DNA of 64,000 nt, taken from the NCBI GenBank assembly GCA_951406725.2, contig OX597816.1:138570001-138634000 (forward strand), read 5' to 3'. The notes beneath the pieces were generated by a model. That model was not told the origin of the DNA. It saw only the letters and a list, made by a program, of their open reading frames with translations, and searched no databases. The position numbers were made by a program, and so were the translations under genes. Shown piece after piece: positions 16,414 through 54,754 of this stretch; positions within the stretch are counted from its first letter, which is position 1; the number at the start of each line of letters is the position of its first letter. The DNA comes from Octopus vulgaris (Eukaryota).

Positions 16414-16551
16414 AATTAAAATTGAAGCTGGGAGTTTGTCTCGCGACTTGAAATTCAAGCCACTGCGATCTTTTAACGAGGATCTTCGCCTGAAGATCGC
16501 AGTAGCCTGAAACTTGAGTCGCGAGCGGACCTATCAGCTTCAGTTTTAATT
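16414..16551. repeat. Imperfect palindrome with back-to-back hammerhead-like arms
   Basis: Left arm reverse complement AAGATCGCAGTGGCTTGAATTTCAAGTCGCGAG..CAGCTTCAATTTTAATT matches right arm AAGATCGCAGTAGCCTGAAACTTGAGTCGCGAG..CAGCTTCAGTTTTAATT. Confidence 0.85.
16486..16524 (+). ncRNA. Hammerhead motif with weak stem II
   Basis: TCGC-CTGAAGA-TCGCAGTAGCCT-GAAA-CTTGAG-TC-GCGA. Stem I TCGC/GCGA, canonical GUC cleavage triplet. Confidence 0.6.
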
Positions 16552-17082
16552 GTGGGTGTATGTGTATGCATATGGACCTGTGTGTACATAATCGCGCAAA
16601 TTATACCCACAGTTATAAGATATAAGAATCCTAATAAGTTTATTTTCAAAATGTCCTTGACCTGGGGTACAAAATTAGGCAAAAGTAAATAATGTGATAC
16701 GTCACAAAAGCAAACAATGAATTCTCAAATAACACCATTTTGTCTTTTCTCAATGCTAAAAAAATAATAATTTACAAAATAGCTGAATATAATCGTATAG
16801 TGTTTCATTTGAATACTTTATAGTTACCAACATCTAAGAGTAATATCTATGGAGCACTTAAAATGTTCTCGTATAAAACTATACAATCTATTTCGTTTTA
16901 TGTAGTGTTAACTAACGGATAGCTATGATGAAACAGCAAACACGGTGTAAACCTAGTATAGGTACAAGATCGATTTTCCGGAAATTTCGATTCTAACATA
17001 TTTCCAGCTTACTGATATTTCCGAACCAGTGATGGTCACCTTGGTCAATGCTCTTTAAATTAAACAAAGTTTAATTTTATTT

Positions 17083-17673
17083 CAGTAATTAAATGAAATA
17101 CAGGAACCTGCATTATTTATATTATTTACATTTTGGTGGATTTTGTAATCATCTTGTTTGTTGTTAACACAACGTTTCGGCTGATATACCCTCCAGCTTT
17201 CATCAGGTGTCTTGGGGAAATATCGAACCTGGGTTCTCATTACAAAGGTATTTTTCGATGTTGTTGTTGTTATTATTATTATTATTATTATTATTATTAT
17301 TATTATTATTATTATTATTACCATTATTATTCAGGTCACTGCCTGGAATCGAACTCGGAATCTCGGGGTTAGTAGACCGCACTCTTAACCACTACGCCAT
17401 ATTTCCGTGAGCATATGGCGTAGTGGATAATAATAATAATAATAATAATAATAATAATAATAATAAGAAGAAGAAGAAGAAGAAGAAGAAGAAGAAGAAG
17501 AAGAAGAAGAAGAAGAAGAAGAAGAAGAAGAAGAACAACAACAACAACAACAACAACAACATCGAAAAATACCTTAGGAATGAGAACCCAGGTTCGATAT
17601 TTCCCCAAGACACCCGAAGAAGGCTGGAAAGTATATCTAATATAAATGATTCCTCATCTCTTAAATAGAACTG
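17083..17673. mobile_element. Palindromic element: tRNA-like head + (AAT/AAC)n + body + hammerhead, in two divergent arms
   Basis: Central inverted repeat CCACTACGCCATAT (17389-17402) / ATATGGCGTAGTGG (17413-17426). Both arms share CATCGAAAAATACCTT..AATGAGAACCCAGGTTCGATATTTCCCCAAGACACC. The left arm has box A TGGCGTAGTGG and box B GAGTTCGATTCC. The right arm has deletions in the head and in the HHR. Confidence 0.8.
17166..17211 (-). ncRNA. Minimal type I hammerhead ribozyme motif
   Basis: Minus strand reads GACAC-CTGATGA-AAGCTG(GAGGGTATAT)CAGCC-GAAA-CG-TT-GTGTT. Stem I GACAC/GTGTT, palindromic AACGTT stem III. The stem II closing pair is mismatched in this copy. Confidence 0.75.
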
Positions 17674-17893
17674 TACCCGCATAATAATATTAATGATACC
17701 AATATTTATTTTCTATGCAAGGTGTTGTTATTCCAGCCTGGAAGCCGCGGGCATTGCTCTTCTTCTAACAAACTTGTGTAGATTAAAAGAATTTCCCAAC
17801 TATCAGTGTCCGGAAGGTCACTAAGAGATGGCTAAACATAAGTTTGGGGCCGAAATATATTACATGAGAATATTAGTTATTTATTTATGTGTA

Positions 17894-18230
17894 GTGAAAG
17901 TGCATGGCTCAGTGGTTAGAGCGTCAGGCTCACAATCATGAGGTAGTGAGTTCTATTCTCGAACCAAGTTGTGTAATTTGTTCTTGAGCAAGACACTTTA
18001 TTTCACGTTGCTCCAGTTAGCTTAACTGTACAAATGAGTTGCAACGTCACTGGTGCCAAGTTGTATCGGCGTTTGCCTTTCTCTTGGATAACATTGGTGG
18101 CGCGTGGAGAGGTGGCTGGTATGCATAGGCGACTACTGATATTCTATAAACAACTCTGACTGGAATTGTGCTTCCCAGGGTAACCATCTAGGAGCAATCC
18201 CATGGTCATTAATGGCCAAAGGGGTCTTTA
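17894..18230 (+). mobile_element. SINE family C-like (body 2, different tail)
   Basis: tRNA-like head plus TTCTTGAGCAAGACACTTTATTTCACGTTGCTCCAG. Another tail variant lies at ~54897-55147. Confidence 0.75.
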
Positions 18231-18887
18231 CTCTATTTATTTGTAAAGTGTTAACCAATTTCACTTAACACATTTTTTTCTATATTTTTATGTATTTTTA
18301 CGTAGTCTTCGTTTAGTAACTGAGGTCAATGAAATATTGAAAACGAACGTATAGAGCCAGATTACCCCCGTATGTTTATGTAATTCACAATAACACGCTG
18401 TCGCGTATTTTATAGCGCTAAATAAAGGTTACAAACATATATCATATATGAATGCCTTTAGTGTTTCGTTAACGTCAACAATCACAATTAAACAACGTGA
18501 TTAATGGGGAATGTAAAAATTTCCCTGAAGTACCTAAACGAACGAATGAATACTTCGAAATAGATAATTCATAAATCATATCCACCATATGCAATGTAAA
18601 ACACTGCATAATTGATTTTAAGACTAGTTATATTCGGAATGTAGAGAAGAAACGTAAAGAAACTGTCGTATTTTTAAACATTTCGTCTAAGTTGTTATAA
18701 CTTCTGTTGTTTATAGACGAAATAATATGTGTGCTGTCAGTAAAAGGAGAGAGGGACGGTAAAATATATCGTCAAAACTACTACTACTACTACTACTACT
18801 ACTACTACTACTACTACTACTACTACTACTACTACTACTACTACTACTACTACTATTATTATTATTATTATTATTATTATTATTATT

Positions 18888-53357: not shown

Positions 53358-54120
53358 CAGGGTGCGACGGAAAAGTTGTCCCCATTTTATATTTTTTTAT
53401 TTCGCGCATGCGCATTGTTTCTTTTTGATTTTGTCGACCACACCGTATAGCAGGGTCAGCTGGGTATCGTCTGTGAGGAAAACAGCAACATGGCGTCATT
53501 CACTCGGCCAGAAATTTGGAAACGACATGCTGAACTGCTTGGCATTGGCGCCGAAAGCTCTAATACGAACATTTCAGAGTGTTTGGGTGTTAGTCTGAGG
53601 ACAGTGCAATCTAACGATACGTATCGAGAGTGATAAAAATCCAACATCCAGTCAACATCATGGTGTTTGGAGTAATCACTAGTGATGGCTACGTTATGCC
53701 TCCATTCATCTTCCCGCACGGCCTCACACACAACTCGGAGGCCTGCATCGCGGAGGCTTACATTGGAAGAGGTAATGCTGCCCTGAGTCAAGACGGTGGC
53801 TGCTGGAAGACCCTATGTCTAGCAACAGAACACTACACCATTCCACACAAGCAGGAGAACCCAGTCATGGCTGTCAGACAATTTCTGCGACATCATCGCC
53901 CCTAACATCTGGCCACCTAAATTCCTATACTGCAACCCCCTAGATTATTATGTGTAGGGCGCAGTTGAGCGAGAGACCAACAAAACGCCACCAAAGATGA
54001 ACTGAAGGCAAGGATTATGACAGCATTCACCAACACAAAAAAGGAGACCTCCCAAAAGAGTTGCAGAAGATTACGAAGTCGTCTGGAGTGCGTCATTGAA
54101 GCCAATGGCTATTTTAATAA
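53358..54120 (+). mobile_element. Decayed Tc1/mariner (maT/DD37D-like) transposase fragment
   Basis: TA-CAGGGTGC start, then HPVNIMVFGVITSDG, QQNTTPFHTS, WPPKFLYCNPLDYY, RLECVIEANGYF. Confidence 0.85.
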
Positions 54121-54286
54121 AATAATGGAAACACCTAGCATCATAGCATCTTAATTTTGAAATATCTATAAAACCGTCAAAATCTTGTTTAGTTTTATGC
54201 TTTTTGATTTATCATTAGTGTTGCTTAATACGTTTTGCTAAAATTGTTGTTTCTTTTCAGATATCATTAAAAAAAAATTCATTAAA

Positions 54287-54473
54287 ATGACAAATCTATC
54301 GACTTTTCAAAGAGGTTAAATTGTTGGTGCTCGTATGGCAGGCGCTAGCGTAACGAAAACAGCCAAAATGTTTGGTGTATCAAGAAGAACAGTCTAGAAC
54401 GTAATGACAAAACTCCGGAAGAAAACGAAAGCTTTCAGATTGGGACAGTCGGACACTTACGCGAATTGTTAGC
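54287..54473 (+). mobile_element. Tc1-like transposase N-terminal HTH fragment
   Basis: MTNLSTFQRG*IVGARMAGASVTKTAKMFGVSRRTV..SGRKRKLS..RTLTRIV. Confidence 0.8.
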
Positions 54474-54708
54474 TTATGAAAGGACAGAATATATACCCTG
54501 TGTATCTAGACGCTGCCCTTTTATAAGCTTTTTTGATTGAAGGTTTTCTTCGATCTTATAATAAGATGATTTTATACTGAAATTTGTTCATCGAGTGCTA
54601 AACACCGTTAGTTGAAAGGACCAATGAAACAAAACCATTTTGAAATGCGTATCCATTAACCTAATTGTATATGTTTGCTTATAACGTTATTTCTGTTCCA
54701 TTCTAAAC

Positions 54709-54754
54709 AAAACTGTCCGACGAACGGGAGCGTGAAACTCTGAGTAACAGTTTT
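54709..54754 (+). ncRNA. Type I hammerhead motif with U4C core variant
   Basis: AAAACTGT-CCGACGA-ACG(GGAG)CGT-GAAA-CTC(T)GAG-TA-ACAGTTTT. 8-bp perfect stem I. AATAAA follows at 54777. Confidence 0.75.

Follow-up and report, generated by a model that had tools for sequence, protein, structure and literature searches.

A stretch of 64,000 nucleotides of Octopus vulgaris DNA (the window: contig OX597816.1 of the 2.8-Gb assembly GCA_951406725.2, positions 138,570,001 to 138,634,000 of the forward strand) holds six inverted structures with hammerhead ribozyme-like motifs, and every core present points away from the centre. I propose that these palindromes are head-to-head insertions of the ends of Penelope-like elements (PLEs), and that the short ones are cDNAs of a capped 5' leader, primed twice and joined to each other at what had been the 5' end of the RNA. 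This is probably the right reading. The evidence comes mostly from the youngest family, that of the palindrome at 47.8 kb (F47), with copies and orientations counted, here as for the other families, one family at a time from exact-match searches.

The window copy of F47 (47698-48000, arms 98.7% identical by self-BLAST) has both arms intact as to the ribozyme: each shows the minimal features of a type I hammerhead (core, stems I and II, a palindromic helix III region and an NUH site). The left arm, on the minus strand (47687-47849, core at 47820), is a leader in which exon 1 is joined to exon 2, and it stops without a tail at a short end (+139) inside (TA)n. The right arm, on the plus strand (47850-48097), retains a remnant of exon 1 (47850-47864), the splice joint and exon 2 from 47865; its core lies at 47878-47884, the predicted cut falls after 47912, and a tail at about 48018-48097 is followed by (TA)n.

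That these are exons can be judged from the long copies of the family, which part from the short ones exactly 13 nt upstream of the core. Where they part, the long copies have a pyrimidine-rich tract and AG (TTTTAG) preceding exon 2, and the 23 nt that short copies carry upstream of this point are found 1.9-2.4 kb higher, followed by GTAAGT. The short copies, both window arms included, have exon 1 and exon 2 joined as an exact spliced product. There are 662 exact matches, and the first 100 comprise 43 spliced copies, four of them in a variant form, and 57 that are unspliced. The intron is kept at all 12 exact junctions of repeat and open reading frame (ORF) in the genome.

Splice state is a property of the pair. 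The 34-nt core of F47 has 516 exact copies, and neighbours within 10 kb, in the first 100 of these, are divergent in 25 cases, tandem in 2 and convergent in none, with divergent spacers ranging from 31 bp to 9.2 kb and the long pairs enclosing coding sequence. The first 100 of the 662 exact matches include 24 divergent pairs that can be set out by splice state: 10 are spliced on both sides, with spacers of 9-317 nt, 14 are unspliced on both sides, with spacers of 1.3-9.1 kb, and no pair is mixed (Fisher p 5e-7). Both arms also carry the same subfamily markers (9/10, 8/8 and 4/4 sites), so the two arms probably come from one source. Three marker haplotypes each occur in spliced and in unspliced copies, which counts against descent from one master that lacks the intron. 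An antisense template cannot yield an exactly spliced copy, and this argues against such a template for the short class, though it might still serve the long one.

Then there is the evidence of the ends. A census of short F47 pairs, 63 of them distinct, covered 108 loci partly drawn by end-anchored searches, and exactly one tail is present in 60 of the 63. In short copies one arm ends at +139 and its partner near +220. The longer arm ends between -40 and -18, the presumed start of the transcript, in 59 of the 63, and a single arm end in 126 falls at the predicted ribozyme cut (+33 to +37). A less biased set, taken from the search with the 516 core copies, agrees: an inverted partner is present at 10/11 short sites, and all longer arms end at -18 to -36.

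The edge itself is sharp. The sequence TCA, its A at +1, is an initiator consensus, and an extra G at the 5' end is the mark of a copied cap. Spliced F47 arms extending as far as -36 number 47, and 42 of them break off at that point, the A of TCACTT. The base preceding the stop is G in 26, A in 11, T in 4 and C in 1, where the element itself has C. With G expected at 11-18%, its excess is significant even against 25% (p 5e-7), and remains so (p 1e-3) when the commonest junction is left out, which occurs 9 times, in two subfamilies and with the tail on either side. An initiator-like TCACT has been noted in a PLE repeat (PMC3846280).

The same kind of edge is found in the family of the palindrome at 23.4 kb (F23). 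Here 514 copies break off at -13, with another base at -14, and 579 continue. The base before the edge, read by eye in the first 100, is G in 57, A in 29 and T in 14, and G accounts for 48/91 after one array is collapsed. All 30 copies inspected have flanking or partner sequence upstream of the edge, unlike the long copy, and the edge is not that of a subfamily variant.

What sort of element is F47? The repeat lies directly upstream of ORFs of 838-852 aa and also downstream of ORF ends, as a terminal repeat does, and at 8 of 12 loci, picked for their long ORFs, the order is repeat, tail, ORF of 822-852 aa. In full, the element runs from exon 1 through an intron (about 1.9-2.4 kb) to exon 2, which bears the hammerhead, and on to the tail and an ORF of about 840 aa. 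The ORF contains RT motifs and those diagnostic of the Hydra clade: an RWK-like motif (RIKWK), DKT, a CxCX5C linker, CxxC, CxH and a C-terminal nuclease region; Pfam finds no match to a reverse transcriptase (RT), GIY-YIG or other nuclease family in it or in three homologues. On its motifs and its likeness to Hydra proteins, F47 is taken to be an autonomous PLE of the Hydra clade. Its insertions sit in (TA)n, which masks any target-site duplication. In locus L231 the ORF has an Asn-rich linker between RT thumb and nuclease (residues ~485-600), of a kind reported in rotifer PLEs (PMC3846280).

The intron has peculiarities of its own. It holds a duplicated exon 1 with a mutated donor, GAAAGT, in which GA stands for GT (L123, 7106-7126 and 8310-8330; also L126 and L240), and some long copies carry two or three such blocks. 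Two loci have odd joints (L067, at G000:C1:21587982, and L064). In one F47 arm, sequence of unrelated origin is attached close to the position of the acceptor, and a further arm retains 4 nt of the donor; both hint at splice partners that are alternative or foreign.

It is already known that the start site and 5' intron of Penelope lie inside its terminal repeat, or pLTR (PMC2377424), and that the protein of an anole PLE, in vitro, cuts and extends both strands and has two internal priming sites, one on either side of the tail, ribozyme cleavage being dispensable (PMC11167929). I propose that in F47 the promoter of the repeat would start a capped sense transcript, from which the first intron is removed. 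The PLE protein would then prime twice inside the transcript, beyond the ribozyme, with one site serving each end of the cut target. Both short cDNAs would run to the cap and be joined there, often through a few shared bases (microhomology), so that the centre of the palindrome would be the 5' end of the RNA. The long copies, which keep the intron and bear the ORF, would derive from unspliced sense read-through RNA. What I infer, in sum, is that the A is the transcription start, that the G is the copied cap, that one RNA or source gave both arms, that microhomology served to join them, and that read-through gave the long copies. Since the ribozyme comes after the start but ahead of both priming sites, every short copy would carry it, uncut and facing outward. 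A broader claim, that the PLE RT copies sense RNA and that its product depends on whether this RNA is spliced, with capped, spliced mRNA giving ORF-less mini-palindromes in which start site and cap are recorded and unspliced read-through RNA alone giving the long and ORF-bearing copies, I hold with less assurance, though I lean towards it.

The model has fullest reach in F47. F23 has the same sharp edge and extra G, and in the family at 17.2 kb (F17) the centre lies at a tRNA-like head. For the families at 16.4, 28.0 and 43.8 kb (F16, F28 and F43) the model may be extended by analogy of architecture.

Several observations weigh against the model. Five of the 47 spliced arms continue upstream of -36, many of the extra Gs could have come from the partner arm at the joint, and no intron was found in F23. 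The rule of one tail is broken in 3 of the 63 short pairs, two of them three-part insertions, and most samples are either end-anchored searches or the first 100 matches. A second 5' form of the family at 51.4 kb was considered as a splice product and rejected, as it resembles another subfamily instead. Start site, cap and splicing are all read from DNA copies alone, and the agreement of the arms at single bases could reflect conversion between them. Finally, of 20 arms truncated downstream, 8 start at +36 to +48 (p 3e-5), between 1 and 13 nt beyond the point where the ribozyme is predicted to cut, and the model does not foresee this. This cluster may reflect polymerase stalling at the fold, or cleaved RNA used as template, and it leaves the fold or the cut some role.

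An alternative view is that the spliced leader gives rise to a single cDNA whose 3' end folds back and primes a copy of the same strand. Deletions would afterwards arise at the unstable centre and make the arms unequal. Such folding back accounts equally well for the concordance of arms in splice state and markers, and it fits the near-perfect recurrent junction with its 4-nt loop. A fold-back copy can include nothing that the first strand lacked, yet of 20 strongly unequal pairs 11 have the tail on the shorter arm and 9 on the longer; frequent secondary deletion is demanded, and the precise stop of the second arm at +139 is left needing an explanation of its own. I consider folding back unlikely, if the most credible of the alternatives. 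The recurrence of one junction 9 times among the 47 arms might instead suggest a non-autonomous master without the intron, or a palindrome already made that is transcribed and copied whole, with the five spliced arms that retain upstream promoter sequence as possible sources. It is hard to see, though, why the remaining junctions should then be diverse, why the recurrent one should be shared by two subfamilies and have the tail now on one side, now on the other, or why three marker haplotypes should each be found in both splice states, and there is little chance that such a master is the answer.

The sequence-only reading of the window, which first noticed the palindromes, proposed inverted duplication during PLE-type reverse transcription near the ribozyme. 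In its strict form, inversion would take place at the ribozyme or on its account, with the cut or the fold setting the centre. The cluster of truncated arms just 3' of the predicted cut speaks for this, as do the F28 palindrome at 27995, whose centre abuts its cores, and the two palindromes at 23.4 and 43.8 kb, in each of which one arm is cut within the ribozyme. Against it are the near absence of arm ends at the cut itself and the ending of nearly all longer arms at the start site, F47 spacers as long as 9.2 kb, the same inverted structures formed by Naiad PLEs with no canonical hammerheads (PMC8557442), and the normal insertion in vitro of ribozyme mutants (PMC11167929). It would be surprising indeed if the ribozyme governed the inversion; I take it to be mostly a passenger near the end of the element, not the trigger. 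The wider claim of that reading, that one PLE-type process acts on many families, is borne out, as is the fixed orientation of the cores. The link to the ribozyme does not survive, apart from that small cluster.

The other five palindromes, called as was F47 by self-BLAST of the window after masking, differ in completeness. That of F16 (16355-16551; arms aligned over 16414-16551, 74% identity) has a canonical core on the plus strand (16490-16496), a decayed one on the minus strand and a tail in the left arm only. That of F17 (17120-17675) has arms at 17183-17258 and 17562-17637 (91%), separated by a tRNA-like head and microsatellites; its left arm, on the minus strand, comprises the head (17331-17410), (AAT)n and a hammerhead (17206-17175), its right arm a stub of the head, half a decayed ribozyme and the tail, and its centre lies near 17408, the 5' end of the head. 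The F23 palindrome (23325-23620; arms 23325-23559, 80%) has its core on the plus strand at 23437-23443, a left arm cut within the ribozyme and the tail on the right. In F28 (27995-28064, 89%) the cores meet at the centre, canonical on the minus strand at 28028 and mutated on the plus strand, and a single homologous palindrome was found elsewhere (L170). The F43 palindrome (43665-43924; arms 43702-43924, 86%), in (TA)n, has its tail in the left arm, which begins at GAAA, and a mutated core at 43812-43818. A canonical core is thus present in one arm each at 16.4, 17.2 and 28.0 kb. It had been claimed that at least four unrelated palindromes carry outward-facing cores: the self-BLAST matches none of the six structures to another, as claimed, but motifs complete in both arms are confined to 47.8 kb. 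The palindrome placed at 17083 exists, its first aligned arm beginning about 100 nt beyond that point.

The cores at 23.4 and 43.8 kb had been called decayed. They are not so in origin: TTGANAA, which differs from the canonical core at U3 and A8, is the normal state of F23 and F43, and only the window copy of F43 is mutated further. The U3/A8 change retains the C3-G8 pair. Cores of this sort escape standard scans for CUGANGA. Non-canonical cores apparently occur in several PLE families, namely F23, F43 and one with an ORF of 753 aa (3' ends in L132 and L139). The 5' end of F23, core included, is also found as ten 37-bp tandem copies at G000:C2:15437299-15437658.

One-sided tails are seen in the window copies of F16, F17, F23 and F43 and at many of their loci, and an inverted partner is present at 15 of 30 inspected loci of F17 and 15 of 30 of F23. 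None of F16, F17, F23, F28 and F43 matches any of 20 long loci, no search aimed at ORF-bearing parents having been made. The head of F17, with A and B boxes, is present at 17/30 loci (L171-L200; in the window, 17331-17428) and aligns at z 5-7.7 to 7/10 of the genome's tRNAs tested; neither ARAGORN nor Rfam calls it a tRNA. F17 unites a tRNA-like head, (AAT)n, a hammerhead and a PLE-type tail, and is either a short interspersed element (SINE) driven by a PLE or a repeat of PLE origin whose promoter is of Pol III type.

The DNA of the window is animal and AT-rich, with about 21% masked as tandem repeats, and named homologues of one encoded protein belong to octopods. The bare pattern CTGANGA..GAAA matches 18 times, against 6.3 per block shuffle (150 shuffles, maximum 15), an enrichment over shuffled sequence, but a descriptor that requires stems I-III leaves 2 matches, the two arms at 47.8 kb (0.007-0.05 in shuffles). 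The remaining motifs fail the descriptor through substitutions, and copies of their families show the elements by eye; the window motifs are taken, from those copies, to be mutated or cut-down members of real ribozyme-like families. No hammerhead family appears among the 150 of 244 Rfam matches listed for the window, those listed being microsatellite and hairpin noise. Nor does any of 8 window motifs, folded as a single strand, beat shuffles in stability, a result expected of minimal motifs and uninformative. Motifs at 15261, 30684, 55581 and others have no stems and were treated as chance or as pieces of other repeats.

Four solo motifs had also been claimed, and two are well supported. That at 51380-51430 on the plus strand (core 51389-51395, canonical, with short stems) belongs to a lone, long repeat copy (~49.9-51.7 kb), close to its 3' end, and has hundreds of candidate copies. 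That at 54709-54756, also on the plus strand, is mutated (motif at 54717, 8-bp stem I), and its family makes palindromes as well, one of which, in L037, keeps an intact core. The two others, both on the minus strand, fare less well: at 20735-20775 the core (20767-20761) is decayed and GAAA absent, and at 28066-28160 there is a partial hammerhead-like remnant with a mutated core. The high density that the motifs had been thought to imply is real, the exact core copies giving lower bounds of 516 for F47, 1598 for F17 and 1898 for F23.

A PLE RT relic in the window had been offered as a sign of candidate machinery. The relic is real, a broken fragment on the minus strand (38637-39160, RT 38637-39148) with stops and frameshifts, joined head-to-head to what appear to be 12 or so nt of the 3' end of its own family, followed by (TA)n. 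Pfam detects RVT_1 in one of three pieces of the relic (E 0.089). It is 93.8% identical to a third PLE ORF, in L139, where RVT_1 falls just under the cut-off (E 1e-6) and GIY-YIG passes it. The machinery exists, then, but its family differs from those of the palindromes tested. A second young PLE, unrelated to F47, has RT and GIY-YIG ORFs of 753-764 aa in divergent pairs with arms up to 4.3 kb; the F47 ORF matches the 753-aa ORF only over a short thumb region, and the relic is therefore not the partner of F47. In place of the nuclease part, the relic adjoins an open stretch of about 150 aa (37900-38636, minus strand), transposase-like by eye and with no Pfam match.

The anatomy of the palindromes is not new in itself. 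An inverted 5'-truncated copy, a palindrome at the head-to-head junction, a one-sided tail and microsatellite targets make up the typical PLE insertion in print (PMC3846280, PMC8557442), and the endonuclease-bearing (EN+) PLEs with inverted pLTRs described there share with F47 the repeat-borne hammerhead, (TA)n and TCACT as well. They differ in a tail of 30-40 nt (PMC3846280), where F47 has about 80, and F47 stands apart from them in that some 4 in 10 of its ends are exactly spliced. No mention of spliced stumps or of an extra G was met in the accessible portions of these two papers. The formation of inverted units and the retention of introns are named in both as open questions, and for the latter PMC3846280 proposes self-priming on an antisense template, leaving the matter open. 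What appears to be new here is the short class, spliced and probably cap-marked, and the concordance of arms. The literature searched gives no account of spliced PLE stumps, arm concordance, a cap-like G or a PLE-driven tRNA SINE; the original papers on the Penelope intron, outside its reach, may mention spliced genomic copies.

PLEs of the Hydra clade (PMC8557442) resemble F47 in the ORF motifs, a C-terminal nuclease region, a canonical hammerhead and insertion into (TA)n, the likeness being judged on motifs. By eye, F47 is not Hydra-1_Obim, since the N-terminus and the ribozyme differ. F47 also has the greater length, reaching about 7 kb, and its intron is rich in repeats and its linker in Asn. 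In Poseidon_Ac (PMC11167929) the tail is likewise bounded by two internal priming sites, both strands are cut and extended, and cleavage is dispensable. Its ORF begins inside the ribozyme, whereas that of F47 begins about 280 nt downstream, beyond the tail, and spliced templates and cDNA joining were outside the scope of that study so far as its accessible portion goes. The minimal type I hammerheads of metazoan PLEs (PMC4209133) share with those of the window a short stem I, a helix III region that is palindromic, very large numbers, a high diversity of families and an unstable monomer fold, but two families here have U3/A8 cores, and the ribozymes here are predicted from sequence. In LINE-1 twin priming (PMC11702581) the second target end also primes on the RNA and the cDNAs are joined by microhomology, but the parts are adjacent, non-overlapping segments of the RNA, whereas the arms of F47 are copies of the same leader, hence a palindrome. 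The non-LTR retrozymes of animals (bioRxiv 10.64898/2026.07.22.740005) are, like the short copies, non-coding, hammerhead-bearing and PLE-derived. They form head-to-tail tandem arrays, in contrast to F47 neighbours, mostly divergent and ending at PLE priming sites. Identity with retrozymes was rejected, the window copies being inverted pairs or solos and not tandem monomers.

If the splice state of sense RNA does set the product, then the retention of introns by PLEs is explained with no need of an antisense template, and palindrome centres amount to a genome-wide map of PLE start sites. The value of F47 is mechanistic: hundreds of young copies give rules that can be counted (a spliced short class, concordant arms, a fixed start with its G, one tail) and directly tested in an in vitro system like that of PMC11167929. 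The recurrent palindromes are ordinary for a PLE-rich genome, and high ribozyme counts in such genomes are mostly counts of dead retroelement ends.

The window also contains inverted repeats that have no hammerhead. An old palindrome of 350 bp (31733-32080, 69%) lacks the motif. At 36898-37460, terminal inverted repeats of 88 bp (87.5%) around a short interior look like the remnant of a DNA transposon. A perfect 34-bp palindrome beside (TA)n (12562-12595) has no ribozyme, and half of it matches the end of a repeat in L032 and L070. Abundant SINE-like repeats form inverted pairs around microsatellites at 22160-23226, 22502-22858, 26759-27805, 39436-39834 and 59735-60612.

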